64,000 nt of DNA from Enterobacteria phage GEC-3S. Shown here one piece after another: positions 3,206-63,112 of this stretch (its first letter is position 1; each line of letters opens with the position of its first letter). The stretch lies in the sequence record HE978309. One strand, given 5' to 3'. Under the pieces are notes generated by a model. That model was not told where the DNA came from. It worked only from the letters and a program-made list of their open reading frames with translations, and searched no databases. The position numbers were made by a program, and so were the translations under genes.

Positions 3206-5029
3206 TTATGATTGCATCCAAATTTTGCGTTGATCTGCATCTTCGCTATAGAGCAAATCGAATAGCTCTTTATAGTTTTCCGGCAACGTGATGATCTCCA
3301 TTACAGGATCGTTGATCACGCGATGATAATCTGATTCTGTAAGAGATGCTAACCCTTTGATATATCTAATGCTATAACCTTTGATATTATCTCGGTCGTT
3401 CTCAAAATCTTCTAGGTCATAATACCATCGAACATCATCACCTTTCTTTGGTTCCGCAATGATAATAGGTGTTTTGACAAACCTGATTCGACCATCTTCG
3501 AACAATTCAGGCCAACGTGCAAAGAAAGAGATCAGACTAGGTTTAATAGACCCGATCCCGTCAGTATCAGCGTCTGTCATAATCGCAATATTTTTGTATT
3601 GCATAACTTCAAGTGCATCAACACCAAATTGCAAGCCAGTGATCGCCATGATGTTAAAAATTTCGGCGTTCTTAACGATCTTTGCCTCCGGTTGTTCCCA
3701 CGTTGTAAGAGTTTTACCTCGCAACGGGAAACCGCCATGTAAATCTTGATCACGTACAGAGATCAGATAGTTGATTGCGGAATCACCTTCCGTCAAAAAC
3801 AGGGTAGTTTCTGCGTCAGTTCCAATAAGGTTAGCTTTAACGTGTTTTGCTACCTTAGCCCGTTTCGCTGCCTTTGCTGCCTTAGTCGCTGCCGCTTTAT
3901 CTGCTGCCTCTTTGCGTGCCAGGACTACAGCAATAATAGGCATGATAATGTTTTCTTTCTTCGCAATGACTTTAGCCAGTTTTTTAAAGTCTAGATCAAT
4001 GTGTCGCTTGATATCACCAGTTGGATTAGTCAAGCGTTCTTTTGTCTGTGAATCAAAACGAAGGTTAGGCAATTCACGAACAATCAAAATACAGGTCAGT
4101 CCAGACTTAACCGCAGCTTTAGTAACATCAACCTTATATTCTTTCTTGATTCGTTTTACAATCTCTTCACAAAGATCATCTGTCACGTAGTCTACGTGTG
4201 TTCCCCCGTTTTTGGTAAACAGACCATTAGCAAAGGATACTGATTTAAAACCTTCTCCCTCGACCGCAGGAACTAGGGCAAGTGAAAAGTTTTTATCTTC
4301 AATGACAAACGGATCATCATTGTATAGTTTAGCATAATCCTTGAACTTACTAACAATACGTTTACCATTAAACTTAAACGTGATCTTAGGAAAGATTACG
4401 CTCAATGATTGCAGACGGTCATGAACAATATCTAAAACAGAGTTGTCCATCATATAACCTTCGAAGTGGTCGAAGTCTGGGCAAAATGTAACCTTTGTTC
4501 CCTTCAATTTTGATGGTTTCGATGACCATGTGATATTTTCAGCACCATTTGTGCATTGTACGGTCATTTCTGTTTCGCCGTCACAAGTTACACCAGTAAA
4601 CCAATCGCTAAAGAAATTTGACAACGACGACCCCACACCGTTCATACCTTGCGTTAATCGATTTGTATCATCAAAGTTAGACCCTGCTTTTGTTCGTGTC
4701 CATGCGGCTACAGGTTGCGGAATCTGCGTGCCCTCTGGGGTAGTAACCATATGTTGAGGAATACCGCGACCATTGTCTGTTACCGTAACAATATTGTTTT
4801 GGATATCGACGCTAATCACATTGGCAAATTCAAAATTAGTGCGGATCGCCTCGTCTACAGAGTTGTCGATGATCTCATCAATGATTTTAACCAGTCCAGG
4901 AACATATGAAATTTTTGTCCATTTACCGAACAGGAAACGTTGATGTTCTTCGTAAGTTGTTGATCCTATATACATTCCTGCACGCTTAAGGACATGTTCA
5001 CGATCAGATAAAATGCGAAACTCACTCAT
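3206..5029 (-). CDS. 39: DNA topoisomerase II large (ATPase) subunit, unsplit gp39
   Basis: 607 aa; GyrB-type N-terminus LSDREHVLKRAGMYIGS and DNGRGIP; ATG with SD GAGG; no gene-60-type split visible. Confidence 0.9.
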   Translation of the reverse strand: MSEFRILSDREHVLKRAGMYIGSTTYEEHQRFLFGKWTKISYVPGLVKIIDEIIDNSVDEAIRTNFEFANVISVDIQNNIVTVTDNGRGIPQHMVTTPEGTQIPQPVAAWTRTKAGSNFDDTNRLTQGMNGVGSSLSNFFSDWFTGVTCDGETEMTVQCTNGAENITWSSKPSKLKGTKVTFCPDFDHFEGYMMDNSVLDIVHDRLQSLSVIFPKITFKFNGKRIVSKFKDYAKLYNDDPFVIEDKNFSLALVPAVEGEGFKSVSFANGLFTKNGGTHVDYVTDDLCEEIVKRIKKEYKVDVTKAAVKSGLTCILIVRELPNLRFDSQTKERLTNPTGDIKRHIDLDFKKLAKVIAKKENIIMPIIAVVLARKEAADKAAATKAAKAAKRAKVAKHVKANLIGTDAETTLFLTEGDSAINYLISVRDQDLHGGFPLRGKTLTTWEQPEAKIVKNAEIFNIMAITGLQFGVDALEVMQYKNIAIMTDADTDGIGSIKPSLISFFARWPELFEDGRIRFVKTPIIIAEPKKGDDVRWYYDLEDFENDRDNIKGYSIRYIKGLASLTESDYHRVINDPVMEIITLPENYKELFDLLYSEDADQRKIWMQS

Positions 5030-11230: not shown

Positions 11231-11239
11231 AATAACCTC

Positions 11240-11443
11240 TTATAGCTCAAATTTCATGAAAGTTCCTACACTTTCATTTTCATTCTCTCCGTTCTCATCT
11301 AAGCCAAATTTGTAGACACTACCATCTGGCGATGTGTAAGAGAATACACGAAAACGGCCTACCGGATCAAGTTCTGTAAATTCATATTCTTTTCCGGCTT
11401 CAAAAAGTGCATATGTGCTTTTAAGACATTTTATCGTAATCAT
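11240..11443 (-). CDS. hypothetical protein (67 aa)
   Basis: ATG overlapping upstream stop (ATGA). Confidence 0.5.
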   Translation of the reverse strand: MITIKCLKSTYALFEAGKEYEFTELDPVGRFRVFSYTSPDGSVYKFGLDENGENENESVGTFMKFEL

Positions 11444-11598
11444 TTAAGCGCCACCGATGAGAACATGATAATAATACCAGCATACATAACAGTCTCAGAA
11501 ATTTTTTCTGTTTTTGTCTTATATCCAGATAACCCGAAAAAGACAACACCAGAAATAGCCATCACAAGCCCGATAATGAATACAATAAAACTAACCAT
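11440..11598 (-). CDS. small membrane protein (52 aa)
   Basis: hand-read MVSFIVFIIGLVMAISGVVFFGL...; strong SD AGGAGA; not in track. Confidence 0.4.
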   Translation of the reverse strand: MVSFIVFIIGLVMAISGVVFFGLSGYKTKTEKISETVMYAGIIIMFSSVALK

Positions 11599-11763
11599 TA
11601 TCTTTCTCCTTTTTGCGTTTTTCTTTACCCGCTACACTAGGTCCACGATTGGTAATAGATCCGCTCGTTTCACCTGCTGCGATCTTCTCAGGATTGCCGC
11701 CAGCATCGCCAGCGGTCATATCTTCTTTGAGTTTATTTTCTTCAACAAACTGTTTAAAGCCAA

Positions 11764-12141
11764 TCATAGAATAATCTCTTTCAGTAAGTCAACAATCTGG
11801 TCTTTTGTCAGTTTATCCTGATTCTCTACAATCTTGATAACACAAGCGTTAACATCTTTTCTAGTCACGCGGGAGATCGTTTTAATCCGGTTAAATGGTT
11901 CGTAGAAATATACTGCTTCATTATAGAGAGCGGATACTTTACGACGCATTTGATCTTTATCTGACAAGAAAACAAGTGCTGTTTTATGACCTTCTACACC
12001 CGCCACGTTATATAGTTCAGCAACACCCCAGCGACCTTCCGGTTCAATCATTCCGGCGTGTTTACCGTCGATAAAAATAAGAATATCTCCGTTGAATGCG
12101 GTTTTGAATGCTACATCTTCCGGCGTAATCATATTTTTCAT
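11764..12141 (-). CDS. hypothetical protein (125 aa)
   Basis: ATG with SD AAGGAGA. Confidence 0.5.
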   Translation of the reverse strand: MKNMITPEDVAFKTAFNGDILIFIDGKHAGMIEPEGRWGVAELYNVAGVEGHKTALVFLSDKDQMRRKVSALYNEAVYFYEPFNRIKTISRVTRKDVNACVIKIVENQDKLTKDQIVDLLKEIIL

Positions 12142-12171
12142 AATATAGTCTCCTTAGAGTTTCATTATAGA

Positions 12172-12807
12172 TCAATCGAATGTAGAAAGCAAATGTTTTG
12201 TTTCTTTCAGTTGTCGTTCAAGATTTTTGCGTTTCTCTTTAAGTTGCATTTTAGCATTATTTCGCTCTCTTGTAACCTCTTTATCAATGCTCTTATTCCA
12301 GTTATCAATATCAGAATAAGTTGGCATACCCAATTCTAGACCTAATGCGGTTGGATGCAGGGTAACAGTCCATAAACCGCTAATCTTCTTAAACAGGTCG
12401 GGGTGTAGTGTACTATCTACATCTTCCGGTGTCAACTCTTTTTCTTCTTTCAGTGGTGGGATCTCGTCATATGGTTCCAGTGCATTTACTTTAATATCAG
12501 ATACCTCATCAAAGAATCCGCGTACATCCGCAGGAAATACACAAGCAATTTCCCAACCGCGATCACGCAGAGAAGTAATATTTTTCACTCCCCCACCATG
12601 TGTGATGATTGATGTGACATTGCCATCAAGGTCCACCGAATTTACGAGAAATGGCTTATCGTCTGTCAGATCATTATAAAACTGTGCTTCGGCTGTAGTC
12701 ATCTCCAGAAACAGATCTCGGATCGGACGACCATCAGGTGCGTTACCTTCCTTGAGAGTATAAAAGCGACTTACGATCCATTTTGGCGGTAAAGCATTAG
12801 CGATCAT
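12172..12807 (-). CDS. hypothetical protein (211 aa)
   Basis: ATG with SD TAGGAGA. Confidence 0.55.
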   Translation of the reverse strand: MIANALPPKWIVSRFYTLKEGNAPDGRPIRDLFLEMTTAEAQFYNDLTDDKPFLVNSVDLDGNVTSIITHGGGVKNITSLRDRGWEIACVFPADVRGFFDEVSDIKVNALEPYDEIPPLKEEKELTPEDVDSTLHPDLFKKISGLWTVTLHPTALGLELGMPTYSDIDNWNKSIDKEVTRERNNAKMQLKEKRKNLERQLKETKHLLSTFD

Positions 12808-12835
12808 GTTATATCTCCTATCAAATCATTCATCA

Positions 12836-12851
12836 GCGCCCCGCAGGGCGC
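12836..12851 (-). other. GC hairpin GCGCCC-CGCA-GGGCGC just downstream of gp41 stop
   Basis: perfect 6-bp stem; weak U-tract; possible terminator or stability element. Confidence 0.35.
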
Positions 12852-12857
12852 ATTTTA

Positions 12858-14270
12858 TTAGAAAGTCATGTTATTTGCTAGCTCGTCGAGTTTTTCTCGT
12901 TTCTCGGCTTGCTGTGCGCTTTGCGGTTTAACTTGTGCATTCTCCTGATCTGCGATCTGGTTTGGTACTTCATACCAACGCTGATTGCCTTTTTTCACAC
13001 CAACGTTAAACCGTGAATAATAGTTCTTGTCACCGTAACGAGACTTGATCTGCTTCATGAGTTGAACGCCCATTTTAGCCAGGTCTTCGGTTTCGATAAC
13101 ACCCAACATAAAATCGGCTGTAGCCGGAAGACCTGCTGATTCAGCGGTATCACTCATGTTAAGGTCGGAAGCATCCCAACCCGCGCGGGTAGTCTGTGCC
13201 GCAGTCCAACCAACAACATCCCACTTAACAAAAAATCCTCGCAGTTCTTCCGCAATCGCCTTAACTAGTGTGTAACTATTTTCAGAGTATACACGCAAGC
13301 GAGACGATGCGCAAATCCCCAGATAGTCAACAATCACAACATCAGGTTTAAACTGTTTCTTGAGTCGCAATTCATTCATTAACGCCTCAAAGTGATTGGA
13401 GTTCGCGCCACCAGTCGGATACTGCTTGATCATCAATTTTCCAACCGGACGATCTCCGATCTTCTTATTCTTAACACGCTTCATACGTGCGGAATATTCC
13501 GCAAAAGAAACATTACCATTATCCAATTCATCTAATGTAATGTCAAGCAAGTTTGCGTCGATACGTTTGGCTACGACATGCTCTGCCATCTCCATTGAGA
13601 TATACAATACATCATAACCGCATTCCATATAATCCGCAGCAAGAGAACACAATCCAAGCGATTTACCAACATTTACACCAGCAAGCAACACATTTAGCGT
13701 TTTTCTTTCCGCCCCTCCTTTCGTGATTTTATTCAACATCGGCAGCTTAAACGGGATCTTATTCGCTTTAGTCTGATATAGCAAGAATCGTTTTTCAAAG
13801 TCATTAAACCAGTCATGACCTACATCAGAATCAAACGTAATGGATAGTGCTTCCTGCATGATCTCAGGAATAGCTCCCTCACTCGGCAATTTCTTATTCT
13901 GTTTCTCTTTTGGTAGTTGTGCGTTCGCCTGAATCTCTAGCGCCCGTGACATTGCATTATACATGGCACGGTCACGAATAAATTTTTCGGTTTCCTTCAT
14001 TAACCAATCAAGGTCTTCCGGTGTATTCTCCAGCGAATCGAGAAGAGTTTTAGCCCCTTCATATGTTGTCTGATTGCCTCTCTCCTTGTCCAAAGCAATC
14101 TGTAATGCAGTTGGCGTAGGAATATTGGAATATTCGTCTACGTGCTTTTTAATCAGCTTATAAATCAGTTTTTCTTCGTCTTCGGTGAAGTAGTCCGCTT
14201 TAAGGTGAGGCCATACATTCGTAAAGAATGCGCCATTGTAAATCAACTGTGAAAAGATAGTTTTAATCAT
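12858..14270 (-). CDS. 41: replicative DNA helicase (DnaB-like)
   Basis: 470 aa; Walker A GVNVGKS; T4 gp41-like; ATGA overlap with upstream gene. Confidence 0.9.
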   Translation of the reverse strand: MIKTIFSQLIYNGAFFTNVWPHLKADYFTEDEEKLIYKLIKKHVDEYSNIPTPTALQIALDKERGNQTTYEGAKTLLDSLENTPEDLDWLMKETEKFIRDRAMYNAMSRALEIQANAQLPKEKQNKKLPSEGAIPEIMQEALSITFDSDVGHDWFNDFEKRFLLYQTKANKIPFKLPMLNKITKGGAERKTLNVLLAGVNVGKSLGLCSLAADYMECGYDVLYISMEMAEHVVAKRIDANLLDITLDELDNGNVSFAEYSARMKRVKNKKIGDRPVGKLMIKQYPTGGANSNHFEALMNELRLKKQFKPDVVIVDYLGICASSRLRVYSENSYTLVKAIAEELRGFFVKWDVVGWTAAQTTRAGWDASDLNMSDTAESAGLPATADFMLGVIETEDLAKMGVQLMKQIKSRYGDKNYYSRFNVGVKKGNQRWYEVPNQIADQENAQVKPQSAQQAEKREKLDELANNMTF

Positions 14271-58981: not shown

Positions 58982-59027
58982 AATTTGATTCTCCGTTTAA
59001 GAAAGTGTGTTTCGTTTCGATGGGTGT

Positions 59028-59056
59028 ATTATGCTATAGGCCGGATCTGGTGTCAA
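59028..59056 (-). promoter_or_regulatory. early promoter (TTGACA-N17-CATAAT)
   Basis: directly downstream of terminator 59090-59107. Confidence 0.5.
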
Positions 59057-59089
59057 CAACTTTTTTAAAAAATTTTAGGCAATAAAAAA

Positions 59090-59107
59090 GCCACTCCGAA
59101 GAGTGGC
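59090..59107 (-). terminator. intrinsic terminator with UUCG tetraloop
   Basis: GCCACUC-UUCG-GAGUGGC + UUUUUUAUU on minus strand. Confidence 0.65.
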
Positions 59108-59245
59108 TTATAGGGAAGGTAGCGAATCTTCCTTGTCTCCAACCTGCTAGCGGCCTAGCAAGTGAATGCTTTAGCGTACCGGATCGCCCACATACGCTGT
59201 AATAAATGCGGCTAGGTGACGTCCAAATCATTCTAACCGCGCTGT
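59108..59245 (-). ncRNA. candidate small non-coding RNA (about 135 nt) from late-type promoter to intrinsic terminator
   Basis: TATAAATA at 59250-59257 then hairpin-rich sequence ending in the terminator; the only ORF here runs through promoter and terminator. Confidence 0.35.
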
Positions 59246-59249
59246 CTTT

Positions 59250-59257
59250 AGTTCACT
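59250..59257 (-). promoter_or_regulatory. T4 late promoter core TATAAATA (exact consensus)
   Basis: immediately after stop of ORF 59259-59477. Confidence 0.4.
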
Positions 59258-59258
59258 A

Positions 59259-59477
59259 TTATTTATATCGCTTTCTCTCGCGACGTTTTTGATCTTCTTC
59301 CTTGATAGAGTTAAATGCATCAAAAAGACACATGACACTGATAATGAACATAACCGTATTTTCTACGATATCCCACGGCTTCGCATCAGTACAGATCCCC
59401 CAAACGGTAAGAAATGCAAATAAGGCAGAAGAGATCACAAGCATGATACTTGCTAAGATATAAAAAGTCATTTTCAT
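59259..59477 (-). CDS. small membrane protein (72 aa)
   Basis: ATGA-coupled. Confidence 0.45.
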   Translation of the reverse strand: MKMTFYILASIMLVISSALFAFLTVWGICTDAKPWDIVENTVMFIISVMCLFDAFNSIKEEDQKRRERKRYK

Positions 59478-59656
59478 GGTTTTACCTCAATTCTTCGATA
59501 TTCATCACACATCCACGCAGTAAGCAAGAATCCCAACACATAAGCAACAAAATACGTTAATGCTTCTTCTGGTTCGGTGCTATGCGCCATCATCAGACCA
59601 GCGAGAAAGGTCTTAACAATTACATTTAAAATAATTAGCCACGCAAATAATTTCAT
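59474..59656 (-). CDS. small membrane protein (60 aa)
   Basis: start at ATG 59656, ATGA-coupled. Confidence 0.45.
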   Translation of the reverse strand: MKLFAWLIILNVIVKTFLAGLMMAHSTEPEEALTYFVAYVLGFLLTAWMCDEYRRIEVKP

Positions 59657-59877
59657 CGTTTGCCCCATTTCGGACGAGTCTTTTCAAACTTATACATTAC
59701 GCAACAATCTCGAATCATCCACGTAACAAGAGCACCAGTCAACACAGACAACACACAGAAGAAGTAAAACGGTCCGGTTGCATTATCAACATGAGCAAGC
59801 CATGTAAAGAAAACACATGCAAGGAATGTAAAGAACATCATAAAACACAAGAAAGCAAAATATTTTATGCTACTCAT
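59653..59877 (-). CDS. small membrane protein (74 aa)
   Basis: start at ATG 59877, ATGA-coupled. Confidence 0.45.
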   Translation of the reverse strand: MSSIKYFAFLCFMMFFTFLACVFFTWLAHVDNATGPFYFFCVLSVLTGALVTWMIRDCCVMYKFEKTRPKWGKR

Positions 59878-59984
59878 AGCGCCACCATACAACAGATCAT
59901 AAGAAAACCCAACGCAATAAGAATTGCATCAAATTTAGTGAACTCCGGTCCACCTATCAACATCATTCGTTCCTGTTCAGTCAT
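59874..59984 (-). CDS. possible small membrane peptide (36 aa)
   Basis: hand-read; ATGA overlaps at both ends; not in track. Confidence 0.3.
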   Translation of the reverse strand: MTEQERMMLIGGPEFTKFDAILIALGFLMICCMVAL

Positions 59985-60178
59985 AGATCACAGAGCCATC
60001 TTAAAGCACCACATAAAGCGAGCAGAATACTAGGTATAAACGAGATCAAAACAAGTTGGCAAAAATCATCTAAGGTAACACCGGAATAGCTACCTACTGT
60101 AACAACACCGATCATCAGACACAGAAAGAAAACAAATGCAACCAGAAACAAAGTATTGCTAAACAGTTTAGTGATCAT
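59981..60178 (-). CDS. small membrane protein (65 aa)
   Basis: start chosen at ATG 60178 with SD GGGGTG. Confidence 0.4.
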   Translation of the reverse strand: MITKLFSNTLFLVAFVFFLCLMIGVVTVGSYSGVTLDDFCQLVLISFIPSILLALCGALRWLCDL

Positions 60179-60371
60179 TAGACACCCCACGACGATCAAT
60201 TTCAAAAACTTTTTTATCATCAACGAAGCATGTCACAACTGCCTCGTTGACTTCCGCAAATTGTTGTGTTACCCACTTAAGGTCAGAGCGAAACAATGTT
60301 CTATTAATAACAAATGCTTTACCGATCTTATCCTTACCCATAAATTTTGCTTTAACCATATCCAATTCCAT
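60168..60371 (-). CDS. dmd: Dmd-like antitoxin (inhibitor of RnlA/LsoA-type toxins)
   Basis: 67 aa; MEL..V.F.G...K...D..W.TQQFAEVN.A.V..FVDDKKV.E.D.RG pattern matches T4 Dmd as I recall it. Confidence 0.45.
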   Translation of the reverse strand: MELDMVKAKFMGKDKIGKAFVINRTLFRSDLKWVTQQFAEVNEAVVTCFVDDKKVFEIDRRGVSNDH

Positions 60372-60380
60372 ATTATCACC

Positions 60381-60539
60381 TTATTTGCTAATCGCTAAAC
60401 CCAATCCGAAGAGAGCACCCGATGCTACAGTATACCCGAAAGTTTCAAATGCAGTAAAGATATCTAAGCCACCAGCTAACAGAGTTGCAGTAAACAGAGT
60501 ACCAGCTACGAACATAAAAGTTTTACCGATAAATTTCAT
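60381..60539 (-). CDS. small membrane protein (52 aa)
   Basis: hand-read; leader GGAGAATCAAAATG; not in track. Confidence 0.4.
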   Translation of the reverse strand: MKFIGKTFMFVAGTLFTATLLAGGLDIFTAFETFGYTVASGALFGLGLAISK

Positions 60540-60570
60540 TTTGATTCTCCTTTCGTTTGTTTGTGGGGGT

Positions 60571-60599
60571 ATCTTACTACCCCCGTTTCATGTTGTCAA
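60571..60599 (-). promoter_or_regulatory. early promoter (TTGACA-N17-TAAGAT) inside GGGGGTAG/ACCCCC palindrome
   Basis: minus-strand read. Confidence 0.5.
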
Positions 60600-60605
60600 C
60601 TATTT

Positions 60606-60980
60606 TTAAGAATATTTTACTTCGTCTACAATGTCTTTCATGACATTGATTTCCATTCCGGTCAGAACACGTTGGAACATGTGCTGCACATACGCTTTCA
60701 GGTATTCATTTGATGGCTTGCTATCGAAAGTCTTTTTAGTGTAGTAGTCATCACCGAAAGCTACTGTAATTATATTTTCGTCGTCGTTCCAAGCGATATA
60801 AGCAAATTTGCCGTTATCCCAGAAGCGAGCACTAATTGCTACTTTTGTTGAATCGAATCCTACTTCGCTGTGAGATTCAAGAACTACTTGCGTGCCAGTT
60901 TCTTTATGAATGTAGTAGCGGGATACTAAGTCAAAGTTACGGGTGTAGTGACATTCGAATTTATCTTTAAACATCATCAT
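60606..60980 (-). CDS. hypothetical protein (124 aa)
   Basis: start at triple ATG 60974-60980 behind GGAGAATCAAA; track extension overlaps promoter. Confidence 0.5.
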   Translation of the reverse strand: MMMFKDKFECHYTRNFDLVSRYYIHKETGTQVVLESHSEVGFDSTKVAISARFWDNGKFAYIAWNDDENIITVAFGDDYYTKKTFDSKPSNEYLKAYVQHMFQRVLTGMEINVMKDIVDEVKYS

Positions 60981-61017
60981 TTTGATTCTCCTAAGTGTGT
61001 TTCGTTTCGATATGTGC

Positions 61018-61046
61018 ATTATTCTATAGTCGTTTATGGTTGTCAA
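61018..61046 (-). promoter_or_regulatory. early promoter (TTGACA-N17-AATAAT)
   Basis: directly downstream of terminator 61064-61082. Confidence 0.45.
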
Positions 61047-61063
61047 CACCTAAAAACAAAAAA

Positions 61064-61082
61064 CCCCGAAAAATTTTCGGGG
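61064..61082 (-). terminator. intrinsic terminator
   Basis: CCCCGAA-AAUUU-UUCGGGG + UUUUUUGUUUUU on minus strand. Confidence 0.6.
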
Positions 61083-61089
61083 TATAAAA

Positions 61090-61554
61090 TTACAGTTTGG
61101 TCGTCCACTCCAGGTCTAGATCTTCGACATACTCATGAGATCGGACAATCTCTAAATCGAACTCTAGGTCAGTGCCAAATTTACGCGCACCAACATCATA
61201 AGAAAGCGTGATATGCGGTACATATTCAGGATAATCCCACGTCGCACCTAAAGCAGTTCCGATATCGTGTCTGAATTGCATGTAGTCGCTTTCAAATGCC
61301 AACACAAGCGCATTAGTACCGGATTGAGTTTCAAACACTTTCAGATGACACAGAGAGCCTAAAAACTTTTCACCCTCTTCCGGGATAAACGGAACATAGA
61401 CACGAGAATATAAGATAGTGCTATGCAGTTTATCACGAGGAACAGCATTAGGCAGATCGTAGAACTCCTGCAATTTTTCAATGCGGTCTAGTGTATCCTC
61501 AGTGAATTTAACCGCAGCATATGTACCTTTAACGGATTCTCGAAACGGGGTCAT
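61090..61554 (-). CDS. 57B: 2H phosphoesterase (Acb1/57B-like cyclic-nucleotide phosphodiesterase candidate)
   Basis: 154 aa from ATG 61554 with SD GGAGG; two H-x-T/S-x motifs (HSTI, HITL); position downstream of 57A and gene 1 as in T4. Confidence 0.5.
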   Translation of the reverse strand: MTPFRESVKGTYAAVKFTEDTLDRIEKLQEFYDLPNAVPRDKLHSTILYSRVYVPFIPEEGEKFLGSLCHLKVFETQSGTNALVLAFESDYMQFRHDIGTALGATWDYPEYVPHITLSYDVGARKFGTDLEFDLEIVRSHEYVEDLDLEWTTKL

Positions 61555-61556
61555 AA

Positions 61557-61817
61557 TCAAGCCTCCGTGATCAGTTCTACTTCCTCTTTAGCGTCTTCCG
61601 CTGCTTCGTCTTTAGGGAGAAGTGCTTTCACTTCTTCGACAATAGCATCAAGGGAAACAGTGCCGTTTTCGTCTGGCTGAATACCCAGAATGCGTACCAG
61701 TTCCATCAATACACGCTCACGATCTTTCAGTTGGCCTTCTAAGAATGCGGCCTTTTCTTGAGTGTCAAACAGACGTACTTTCAGGACATTAATCATTTGT
61801 TCATGCTGATTGGACAT
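61557..61817 (-). CDS. 57A: gp57A-like coiled-coil protein (tail fibre assembly chaperone candidate)
   Basis: 86 aa from ATG 61817 with SD AGGAGA; acidic C-terminus; positional match. Confidence 0.4.
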   Translation of the reverse strand: MSNQHEQMINVLKVRLFDTQEKAAFLEGQLKDRERVLMELVRILGIQPDENGTVSLDAIVEEVKALLPKDEAAEDAKEEVELITEA

Positions 61818-61849
61818 ATTCACATCTCCTACTTGTTGATAACTTTTTA

Positions 61850-62506
61850 TTAAATGTTCGCGAGAATCGCGCTTTCAAATTCTTCTAATGTGCCATTATT
61901 TATAATGATGGTTTCACCGTCAATAGGCAAAATTCCTTTTTCGGTGGAGTGAGTCGATACAATACCAGTATCACGCTGAATATGCAACACCTTAGCACCC
62001 ATAGCACGCATGAGAGCAATTTCAATAGGCTGACGCACATCAACCACTACAAAATACCCTTCTTCATTTTTGCGCTTCATAAACTCATCCACAAATAGAT
62101 TACACCAATAAAGCGGATTGATCAAGTTAACCATTATATCAGTACCGAGAGTGGTTAACATGAGACGAATAGACCAGACGTTATTATGTTTTTCGCCGAT
62201 CTCATTAACGACCTTGTAAATCTCAGCCAGACGATCACAAGTAAAGGAGCTACCGCCATACTTCGAATCTAGCATAAGCAGACACTGAATAAACCACTTA
62301 TGCGCGGTGTAGGTATCAATACCTAGATCGGCTTCTCTGTCACGCCCTAACCCGTCAAAGTCAAGATAAGTCAGACCTAAGTCTGGTTGACATTCGCATA
62401 AGATTTCTTTGATCGGCGCTGCCAGTTGATAACTGTGTCCATCAATGATTAACGCGGCAGTGTCTTTTCCTACTCGCTTTTTACCACAAAGTGCAATCAA
62501 TTTCAT
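61850..62506 (-). CDS. 1: deoxynucleoside monophosphate kinase
   Basis: 218 aa; P-loop GKKRVGKDT; long blocks matching T4 gp1 (LGTD, DVRQ, AMGA). Confidence 0.85.
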   Translation of the reverse strand: MKLIALCGKKRVGKDTAALIIDGHSYQLAAPIKEILCECQPDLGLTYLDFDGLGRDREADLGIDTYTAHKWFIQCLLMLDSKYGGSSFTCDRLAEIYKVVNEIGEKHNNVWSIRLMLTTLGTDIMVNLINPLYWCNLFVDEFMKRKNEEGYFVVVDVRQPIEIALMRAMGAKVLHIQRDTGIVSTHSTEKGILPIDGETIIINNGTLEEFESAILANI

Positions 62507-62521
62507 TATATAAGCCTCTTA

Positions 62522-63112
62522 TTACTTTCTAAAAGCAGGGTGCATAGCTTTAATACCTTCCACCCGCTGACGATCCGCCGCCTGAATTGCTGGGCGAGGA
62601 ACGATCAGTTGGCCATCACGTTCAATGCTCATTGTTTTAAATGGAAGAATTGCAGTACACACCAGAGATTCATGCATATCATCGGTGTATGTTAACTCAA
62701 GTTCCCCCAATTGTGAACACCAACAACCATAAAAGTTAAAGGTGCAAACAATGTTACGGCGTTCATTGTCCATCATGTGAACTTGAACGGCTTCCGGCAT
62801 TGAATCCTTCCACGCTGTGGAGTTACCGTTATTGTAGTCTACTATAGAAAGCATCCATGTGTAAAGGTTTAGATAACTTTCCAAATGCTCATCGACAATA
62901 AACCGGACTACCAACGGGTCAAACTCCACATGACTAGAAGGATAATCAGCAACCGCCAAACCATATTGGCCAGCAACTTGCTTAGTCGGTGGAATGGTTA
63001 TAGCAGGAAGTGTAACACCTTGAGCATTTAAAGTAAAGCCTTTTGTTAGTTGTCCATCTGGAATATTGATCTGCCAGTTGCTAGGGTTAGCATAGTTAAA
63101 GAGATTAGACAT
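62522..63112 (-). CDS. hypothetical late protein (196 aa; T4 gene 3 position)
   Basis: ATG with SD GAGGAA; late-promoter-like AATAAATA upstream; identity not established. Confidence 0.4.
   Translation of the reverse strand: MSNLFNYANPSNWQINIPDGQLTKGFTLNAQGVTLPAITIPPTKQVAGQYGLAVADYPSSHVEFDPLVVRFIVDEHLESYLNLYTWMLSIVDYNNGNSTAWKDSMPEAVQVHMMDNERRNIVCTFNFYGCWCSQLGELELTYTDDMHESLVCTAILPFKTMSIERDGQLIVPRPAIQAADRQRVEGIKAMHPAFRK

Follow-up and report, generated by a model that had tools for sequence, protein, structure and literature searches.

Dmd of bacteriophage T4 (gene 61.5) is a well-studied phage antitoxin. It binds a groove between the TBP2/NRD and HEPN domains of its toxin and thereby blocks the toxin (PMC8266594). 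Because Escherichia coli K-12 expresses RnlAB, T4 dmd is conditionally essential on this host (bioRxiv 10.1101/2025.11.20.689424; PMC8266594). The T4 gene is driven by an early promoter (PMC9391042) and lies in the order uvsX-40-41-dmd-61.4(tifA)-sp-61.2-61.1-61, as part of the "anti-TA island" dmd-tifA-(sp)-adfA(61.2) between genes 41 and 61 (Srikant et al., 2022, PMC9391042). The host antitoxins RnlB and LsoB presumably share with Dmd both targets, RnlA and LsoA, and net effect. They are, however, unrelated to Dmd in sequence and encoded beside their toxin, whereas Dmd is an orphan borne by the phage, and they are reported to inhibit by a mechanism other than that of Dmd (PMC8266594). The second described system that bears on the locus analyzed here is the promoter-early stem-loop (PeSL) of the phages RB49 and Phi1. 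In Phi1, 52 PeSLs are listed, a stem-loop lying over the -10 box is one of the two commonest arrangements, and promoter and terminator activity has been shown experimentally for PeSLs other than the one described below (Arbiol et al., 2010, PMC2839356).

The DNA analyzed here (the window) is a stretch of 64,000 nucleotides from Enterobacteria phage GEC-3S (HE978309). Its positions 59000-62600 are matched over the full length, at 95-99% identity, by 57 Krischvirus genomes (RB49, Phi1, JSE, ECD7, and others), and the same 57 genomes match the region of genes 41 and 61 at 90-99% (50 at 95-99% and 7 at 90-95%). These matches over both regions identify the window, by sequence, as the initial 64 kb of the genome of an RB49/Phi1-like, "pseudo-T-even" coliphage of the genus Krischvirus. 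All genes treated here are on the minus strand, and the transcription order runs from gene 3 through gene 1 (dNMP kinase), 57A, 57B, and ORF125 to the unit that contains dmd. The features of this region, in the direction of transcription, are as follows.

61090-61554, minus strand: gene 57B (labelled so in Phi1), encoding a member of the Acb1 anti-CBASS phosphodiesterase family (Pfam PF23474, 174 bits)
60606-60980, minus strand: ORF125 homologue, soluble, 124 aa, last gene of the upstream unit (PHROG 15253)
60540-60605, minus strand: candidate PeSL-type regulatory cassette of 66 nt between ORF125 and ORF124 (promoter scan, MFE folding, conservation)
60381-60539, minus strand: ORF124 homologue, 52 aa, two predicted transmembrane segments, rich in Gly, Ala, and Thr (PHROG 16462, function not assigned)
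60168-60371, minus strand: dmd, encoding a 67-aa Dmd antitoxin orthologue (matches in PDB, Pfam, PHROG, and AF2/Foldseek)
59981-60178, minus strand: ORF122 homologue, 65 aa, two transmembrane segments (PHROG 17225)
59874-59984, minus strand: ORF121, 36 aa, hydrophobic
59653-59877, minus strand: ORF120, 74 aa, hydrophobic
59474-59656, minus strand: ORF119, 60 aa, hydrophobic
59259-59477, minus strand: ORF118, 72 aa, hydrophobic
59109-59088, minus strand: terminator-like hairpin with T-run at the end of the unit, followed by an early promoter, TTGACA-17-CATAAT, at 59056-59028

The known counter-defence neighbor of dmd is 57B (Acb1), about 0.7 kb upstream. 57B is a conserved core-flank gene, and the hyperplastic region with dmd begins there. 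ORF125 has a terminator/promoter cassette of its own (61018-61083) and shows only a sub-threshold likeness to T4 Gp30.7 (E 0.0086). A search for known RNA families between 57 and 63 kb returned none.

The preliminary description, made from the sequence alone, had recognized a Dmd in the 67-aa protein, and this identification is borne out. A phmmer search of all PDB chains returned just two sequences, both of them Dmd. T4 Dmd from its complex with LsoA (5hy3_B) aligns over the full length (E 7.9e-13, window residues 4-62 against 2-60), and the other match (5i8j, E 1.3e-9) is RB69 Dmd, as identified via Foldseek. The protein scores 57 bits against the Pfam family PF17587 "Dmd", over profile positions 2-60 of 60 and with a cut-off of 27 bits, and it matches PHROG 2102 with an E-value of 1.3e-30. 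Its identity is 47% to T4 Dmd and 45% to RB69 Dmd. An AF2 model computed from 15 Krischvirus-type sequences (pLDDT 90) has a beta-beta-alpha-beta-beta topology, with strands at residues 5-14, 19-27, 44-50, and 53-59 and a helix at residues 28-42. The best three Foldseek matches of the model are 5i8j_A/B and 5hy3_B (TM 0.82-0.96), and the next has an E-value of 0.12. The rmsd is 0.5 Å to LsoA-bound T4 Dmd 5hy3_B (TM 0.96 on target) and 1.1 Å to RB69 5i8j. In an alignment of eight sequences that covers all five of the locus types described below, the sole invariant block is D-x2-W-x3-Q-x-AEVN in the helix (D30, W33, Q37, and A39-N42 of the window protein), and the two N-terminal strands are poorly conserved between locus types. 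W33 and N42 align with W31 and N40 of T4 Dmd, two residues that Wan et al. reportedly found in 2016 to be required for LsoA binding. Sequence and predicted structure thus agree in identifying the 67-aa protein as a genuine Dmd, far beyond chance. It shares with the T4 (5HY3 chain B) and RB69 (5I8J) proteins the PF17587 family, a similar length, the fold, the helix motif, a single gene copy, and an early sigma-70-type promoter, which in the window is predicted. Unlike these two proteins, the window copy has five extra residues at its C-terminus, VSNDH, which form a non-conserved tail arising from the overlap with the next ORF (ORF122). Across Krischvirus the tail is either VSNDH or GV, as set by the length of a G-run.

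The same locus is already labelled "dmd" or "Dmd discriminator of mRNA degradation" in RB49 (AY343333), Phi1 (EF437941, phi1p123), ECD7, JSE-like phages, and many recent isolates, and dmd is present in 57 of 57 Krischvirus genomes, with one copy each among the matches listed. This annotation and distribution mark the window dmd as a known gene, with, at the sequence level, allelic differences only from the RB49, Phi1, and ECD7 copies, and the novelty attributed to the locus has to be given up. A tblastn search with the window Dmd yielded 57 records above 80% identity, all from Krischvirus (39 at 95-99%, 16 at 90-95%, and 2 at 80-90%), and 741 further records below 60%, in T4-type phages; among the matches listed, the Krischvirus Dmd proteins are 92.9-97% identical. 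In a few isolates (MIZ4, MIZ5, FL15), the dmd allele is frameshifted and encodes 56 aa; should this frameshift be real, dmd would be dispensable on some hosts. Neither experiments on a Krischvirus Dmd nor papers on its function or position were found in the searchable literature. By itself the finding is of minor weight, as a recognized and annotated orthologue of a known antitoxin, and its added value is comparative.

The comparison concerns first the place of the gene. The T4 arrangement of 41 and dmd is shared by two Dhakavirus genomes and 13 T4-type contigs from IMG/VR, some of which have an extra ORF between the two genes. The corresponding region of the window consists of three parts.

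12858-14270, minus strand: gene 41
11231-12857, minus strand: interval between genes 61 and 41, with ORFs of 211, 125, 58 (61.1), 52, and 67 aa
10202-11230, minus strand: gene 61

Only the 58-aa ORF of this interval (11591-11767) has a T4 counterpart, 61.1, with 48% identity by tblastn. When T4 Dmd, TifA, Sp, and 61.2 served as tblastn queries against the whole 64-kb window, the dmd gene at 60.2 kb was the sole match, and a second copy or a remnant of dmd was not detected in the window, the 41-61 interval included, at E-values up to 10. The window dmd therefore does not lie between 41 and 61.4/tifA, in agreement with the earlier observation that T4 dmd sits between 61 and 41 and that this interval lacks it here. 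Like the T4 anti-TA island, the dmd-containing unit of the window is a cluster of small accessory genes, predicted to be early; it differs from the island in that homologues of tifA, sp, and 61.2/adfA are absent from the 64 kb. The window dmd also differs from that of T4 and RB69 in its location, downstream of 57B/acb1, and in its partners, six membrane mini-proteins in place of TifA.

Dmd-family genes occupy still other positions. The Klebsiella phages of the Marfa/F48 group (25 records) encode a 63-aa Dmd (29.9 bits) in the order mrh-x-modA-dmd-srd-dda.1-dda. In the Erwinia phage Cronus (Roskildevirus), a 66-aa Dmd-family protein (29.1 bits) is encoded in the order rIIB, denB, ORF, Dmd-like, ORF, ndd; in the database this protein is mis-annotated as "mRNA endoribonuclease LsoA". 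The nearest Dmd outside the Krischvirus-like clade is P0020, a 65-aa protein that shares 63% identity with the Dmd of the window. It is encoded on L024, a metagenomic contig of 32.7 kb from a more distant uncultured relative of Krischvirus, in the order rI, …, C5-methylase, 106-aa ORF, 69-aa ORF, Dmd, 72-aa ORF, …, nrdC, 49, nrdD, and it was not found in IMG/VR. The four-gene dmd unit of L024 is bracketed by PeSL-like promoter/stem-loop cassettes that share the AAGGAGAATCAA-ATG leader of the window. Only three clusters came out of an exhaustive phmmer search for Dmd over 1.84 billion cluster representatives: P0020 is one of them, and another, a protein of 1,940 aa with tandem repeats (P0022), was rejected as a summed-repeat artefact. 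A word-indexed search for distant relatives recovered close ones only. Among phage records, about 830 matched a Dmd-family query.

The locus types are accordingly 41|dmd|tifA in Tevenvirinae, downstream of 57B in Krischvirus, modA|dmd|srd in Marfavirus, rIIB|denB|x|dmd|x|ndd in Cronus, and the tk-nrdC region in L024. Three contexts in addition to those of T4 and Krischvirus pass the Pfam threshold for Dmd, which, as judged from profile scores, places Dmd-family genes at at least five loci in Straboviridae. With PF17587-positive members at five loci, synteny is not a defining property of the family. The number of loci across T4-like phages supports, by sequence comparison, a relocation of dmd on the evolutionary scale. 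The preliminary description went too far in calling the gene "displaced" from its T4 position, since this treats the locus found in T4 as the original one, whereas any of the loci may be ancestral. T4-like genomes thus have Dmd-family genes at no fewer than five unrelated sites, with the invariant helix motif kept throughout, and in at least two lineages dmd sits within early transcription units bounded by promoter/stem-loop cassettes. This makes dmd a handy marker for the shuffling of counter-defence genes among hyperplastic regions. It also calls for caution: T4 synteny is an unsafe guide for finding or dismissing anti-defence genes in other genera.

In the window, the gene belongs to a predicted unit of seven genes, in the order ORF124 (52 aa), dmd, ORF122, ORF121, ORF120, ORF119, and ORF118. 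Both the 67-aa and the 52-aa ORF exist as first described; the product of ORF124 is hydrophobic (GRAVY 1.11). The stop codon of ORF124 precedes the dmd ATG by a gap that holds AAGGTG, an SD-like sequence 5-6 nt 5' of the ATG. The ORF122 ATG sits within the final 11 nt of dmd, and ORF121, ORF120, ORF119, and ORF118 are joined by successive 4-nt overlaps (ATGA). Dmd is the sole soluble product of the unit, and the other six proteins have one or two predicted transmembrane segments each, so that the placing of dmd amid membrane mini-proteins is well founded. Pfam gave no match above threshold for ORF124 or the other mini-proteins, and no toxin family was matched among the ORFs neighboring dmd in Pfam or PHROG. 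Classical type II toxin-antitoxin operons have the gene of the antitoxin beside that of its cognate toxin, which is not the case for the window dmd; by analogy with T4, the product of dmd is best regarded as an orphan phage antitoxin aimed at host toxins.

The cassette upstream of this unit has a sigma-70-like promoter, which scored 10/12 in the promoter scan, with a -35 box TTGACA (60599-60594), a 17-nt spacer, and a -10 box TAAGAT (60576-60571). A 7-bp stem-loop, GGGGGTA/TACCCCC (60563-60586; MFE z -2.7), overlaps the -10 box, an AT-rich tract, AAAATATTCTTAAAAATA, lies upstream of the promoter, and an SD sequence, GGAG, lies downstream. The cassette is nearly invariant across five Krischvirus-like sequences, including that of the divergent contig L007. 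It shares with the PeSLs of RB49 and Phi1 (PMC2839356; Comeau et al., 2014, PMC4122927) the -35/-10 consensus, the AT-rich tract, and the polyG/polyC stem-loop over the -10 box. Like them, it is intergenic in a hyperplastic region and upstream of an ORFan, is followed by an SD sequence and a start codon, and has a sequence-mosaic breakpoint adjoining it. Unlike them, it is flanked by genes that are fixed, not variable, across the genus. By these features the cassette matches the description of a PeSL, and a strong early promoter is predicted. The preliminary description had assigned dmd its own promoter cassette. A cassette does lie upstream, but the promoter precedes ORF124 and, from the gene arrangement, belongs to the entire seven-gene unit and not to dmd alone; ORF124 is the first gene and dmd the second.

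The explanation that best accounts for these observations, and that we hold with considerable confidence, is that the 67-aa ORF is the Krischvirus orthologue of T4 Dmd, that it acts as an early-expressed blocker of RnlA/LsoA, and that its locus results from the shuffling of accessory genes. Host RNA polymerase would transcribe dmd at once after infection from the strong sigma-70-type PeSL promoter, the early timing being judged from the promoter sequence, and dmd would be expressed as the second cistron of a tightly coupled early operon of seven genes. By analogy with T4, the shut-off of host expression by the phage would let the labile RnlB or LsoB decay and so free the HEPN endoribonucleases RnlA and LsoA, which would then degrade phage mRNA. 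Dmd would bind in the groove that separates the toxin's second TBP-like domain from its HEPN domain, and so block the toxin; both the binding and the target are taken over from the T4 protein. The position downstream of 1-57A-57B(acb1), and not beside 41, would be the genus-specific outcome of accessory-gene shuffling among hyperplastic regions. K-12 strains of E. coli served as isolation hosts for many Krischvirus phages, which makes it plausible that Krischvirus has the same need as T4 for Dmd against the RnlAB of K-12.

With no more than 47% identity to T4 Dmd, the window protein may differ from it in target specificity. It is conceivable, though we consider it unlikely, that a Dmd fold of diverged specificity is aimed at a different RnlA/LsoA-family toxin, or another HEPN toxin, of the natural E. 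coli hosts and not, or not only, at K-12 RnlA or pOSAK1 LsoA. Together with the low identity, the poor conservation of the two N-terminal strands points in this direction, and homologues of TifA are "tuned" to particular toxins (PMC9391042). The substitution pattern is also of interest in this respect. Relative to L007, dN/dS is 0.40 for dmd, 0.45 for ORF124, and 0.51 for ORF122, as against 0.06-0.18 for ORF118 to ORF121, all from small counts. The value for dmd is that of a real gene under purifying selection, as far as sequence divergence can tell; its excess over the flanking genes fits an arms race, and the raised values of dmd, ORF124, and ORF122 could reflect either relaxed constraint or such an arms race. 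Against a change of target, the window Dmd retains every residue of the invariant helix motif of the family, and the model superposes closely on the LsoA-bound form of T4 Dmd. Moreover, T4 Dmd already handles two toxins, and Krischviruses grow on K-12, which expresses RnlAB.

A broader proposal would make Dmd one passenger of early cassettes that are bounded by PeSLs and carry accessory counter-defence genes from one hyperplastic region of T4-like genomes to another, with ORF124, or all six mini-proteins, providing a second counter-defence or exclusion function at the membrane that is selected for co-expression with Dmd. We regard this combination as improbable.

More improbable still is that ORF124 and dmd function together as a mobile counter-defence module of two genes, as was implied when the 67-aa and 52-aa proteins were described as paired and the anti-toxin module as mobile. 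The two genes are 9 nt apart under one common promoter. Their adjacency holds throughout the Krischvirus-like sequences examined, at identities as low as 82% for ORF124 and 80% for Dmd; ORF124 is present in 57 of 57 Krischvirus genomes, and in all contigs where it is divergent (85% and 82% identity) dmd follows directly. In L007, the divergence of the two genes is likewise joint. Across 57B, ORF125, and the full length of the PeSL, the DNA of L007 is about 98% identical to that of the window, a break follows just past the PeSL, and ORF124, dmd, ORF122, and ORF121 diverge together at 72-87%. The rate of synonymous substitution (dS) climbs from 0.044 in ORF125 to 0.245 in ORF124. Because the fall in identity and the rise in dS lie directly 3' of the PeSL, a recombination boundary at the conserved cassette is indicated by the L007 comparison, and it is consistent with PeSL-mediated exchange. 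The low-identity tract, however, spans four genes and not two, since it includes ORF122 and ORF121, and identity recovers to 96% in ORF120 before a second drop in ORF119 and ORF118, and no cassette lies between. The idea that every mosaic break falls at a PeSL was rejected on account of this rise and fall inside the ORF121-ORF118 chain. Since the co-divergence reaches ORF122 and ORF121 and mosaic breaks occur without a cassette, the tracts are those of ordinary recombination.

The distribution of ORF124 likewise speaks against a module. Relatives outside the Krischvirus-like phages were found neither in 50,697 phage records nor in an index of 5.8 billion proteins, where ORF124 forms 3 clusters, all from Krischvirus-like phages. 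Co-occurrence beyond one genus, which a two-gene module would be expected to show, was not seen: ORF124 is absent from the four other Dmd contexts, and the Dmd genes of Tevenvirinae, Marfavirus, Roskildevirus, and L024 have other neighbors. P0020 has unrelated, soluble neighbors, whose homologues in the window are ORFs at 41.5-48 kb and not ORF124 or ORF122. In addition, T4 Dmd acts alone, on a cytoplasmic toxin. Of the mobility that had been proposed, the relocation of the gene itself among five loci therefore stands, and the two-gene module with the 52-aa protein, which is confined to Krischvirus-like phages, does not. From these distributions ORF124 appears to be a genus-specific, co-transcribed neighbor and not a demonstrable partner of dmd, and a functional pairing, though conceivable, is not indicated.

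A recent horizontal transfer of dmd into Krischvirus from a T4-type phage, for which one might cite its non-syntenic location in a hyperplastic region rich in recombinogenic PeSLs, is scarcely credible, because the identity between the window and T4 is no higher for Dmd (47%) than for the core proteins gp41 (57%) and gp61 (52%) or for 61.1 (48%), and the exhaustive search returned no intermediate Dmd sequences except P0020, which is closer to the Krischvirus type. The pattern of identities fits an old presence of dmd in this lineage followed by relocation, or an old acquisition.

By sequence, gene 57B is clearly a member of the Acb1 family. A stretch of ~1.4 kb of the window therefore holds two genes for counter-defence, acb1 and dmd, with ORF125, ORF124 and a pair of promoter cassettes between them. 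The features flanking dmd are:

61090-61554, minus strand: gene 57B, of the anti-CBASS family Acb1 (174 bits against Pfam PF23474)
60606-60980, minus strand: ORF125, a soluble protein of 124 aa
59259-60178, minus strand: a single chain of five tiny hydrophobic ORFs 3' of dmd (65, 36, 74, 60 and 72 aa)

The resemblance of ORF125 to T4 Gp30.7 (Pfam PF06919) is below threshold (E 0.0086; 16 bits, cut-off 27), and the protein is 98% conserved even against the divergent Krischvirus-like contig L007. Each of the five mini-ORFs after dmd has one or two predicted transmembrane segments. The first is overlapped by dmd over 11 nt, ATGA overlaps join the remainder, and dN/dS values of 0.06-0.51 indicate purifying selection on all five.

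Comparison of L007 (IMGVR_UViG_3300005711_000030) with window 59000-62600 revealed a mosaic of divergence. DNA identity is ~98% in 57B from ~61225 towards its 3' end, in ORF125 and in PeSL, the promoter/stem-loop cassette heading the dmd operon, and is lower in the remainder of 57B (~88-97%, dS 0.26). It is 72-87% from ORF124 to ORF121, 92-97% in ORF120 and ~80% in ORF119 and ORF118. Another low-identity patch is found in 57A (79% at the amino acid level).

The 3' end of dmd itself varies with homopolymer length (window 60168-60185, minus strand; 832-925 in phage MIZ4, L032). The G4 allele encodes the tail VSNDH and produces the 11-nt overlap with ORF122, and the G5 allele, found in Dmd protein clusters P0013, P0016 and P0017, encodes the tail GV and has a TAATG junction. 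A change from A6 to A7 in MIZ4, MIZ5 and FL15 yields a 56-aa protein that lacks the last strand, which may reflect either true gene loss or a sequencing error.

The interval between genes 41 and 61 (window 11231-12857, minus strand) lacks the entire T4 "anti-TA island" of dmd, tifA, sp and 61.2/adfA, and 61.1 (11591-11767) is the only T4 gene kept there. Two other ORFs of this interval, of 211 and 125 aa, had no match in Pfam. It also contains:

11440-11598, minus strand: a second, unrelated 52-aa ORF with two transmembrane segments

Window coordinates agree with those of phage Phi1 at ~10-14 kb and are ~664 bp ahead by 59 kb; relative to Phi1, the window therefore has a net insertion of ~0.66 kb somewhere within ~14400-59000.

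Dmd-family proteins were also found in more distant phages:

1984-2184, Erwinia phage Cronus (L033, NC_055743): a Dmd-family member 66 aa long (29.1 bits in Pfam against a threshold of 27)
~3935-4126, Klebsiella phages EI, F48 and kv_tblp2 (L021-L023): a divergent 63-aa Dmd-family protein (Pfam 29.9 bits)

The Cronus gene has rIIB and denB upstream, with one ORF intervening, and ndd downstream. Its product carries the annotation "mRNA endoribonuclease LsoA", which names the toxin and not the antitoxin, a label probably transferred from the 5HY3 complex. A predicted protein of 1,940 aa (P0022) consists of ~8 almost identical tandem repeats, whose weak matches to Dmd add up to E 4.7e-7. It was rejected as a relative, as it has the look of a repeat that was concatenated or wrongly assembled. 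The 63-aa gene occupies the modA-srd interval in 25 records of Marfavirus-type Klebsiella phages, and its presence implies that RnlA/LsoA-like toxins act as a selective pressure in Klebsiella.
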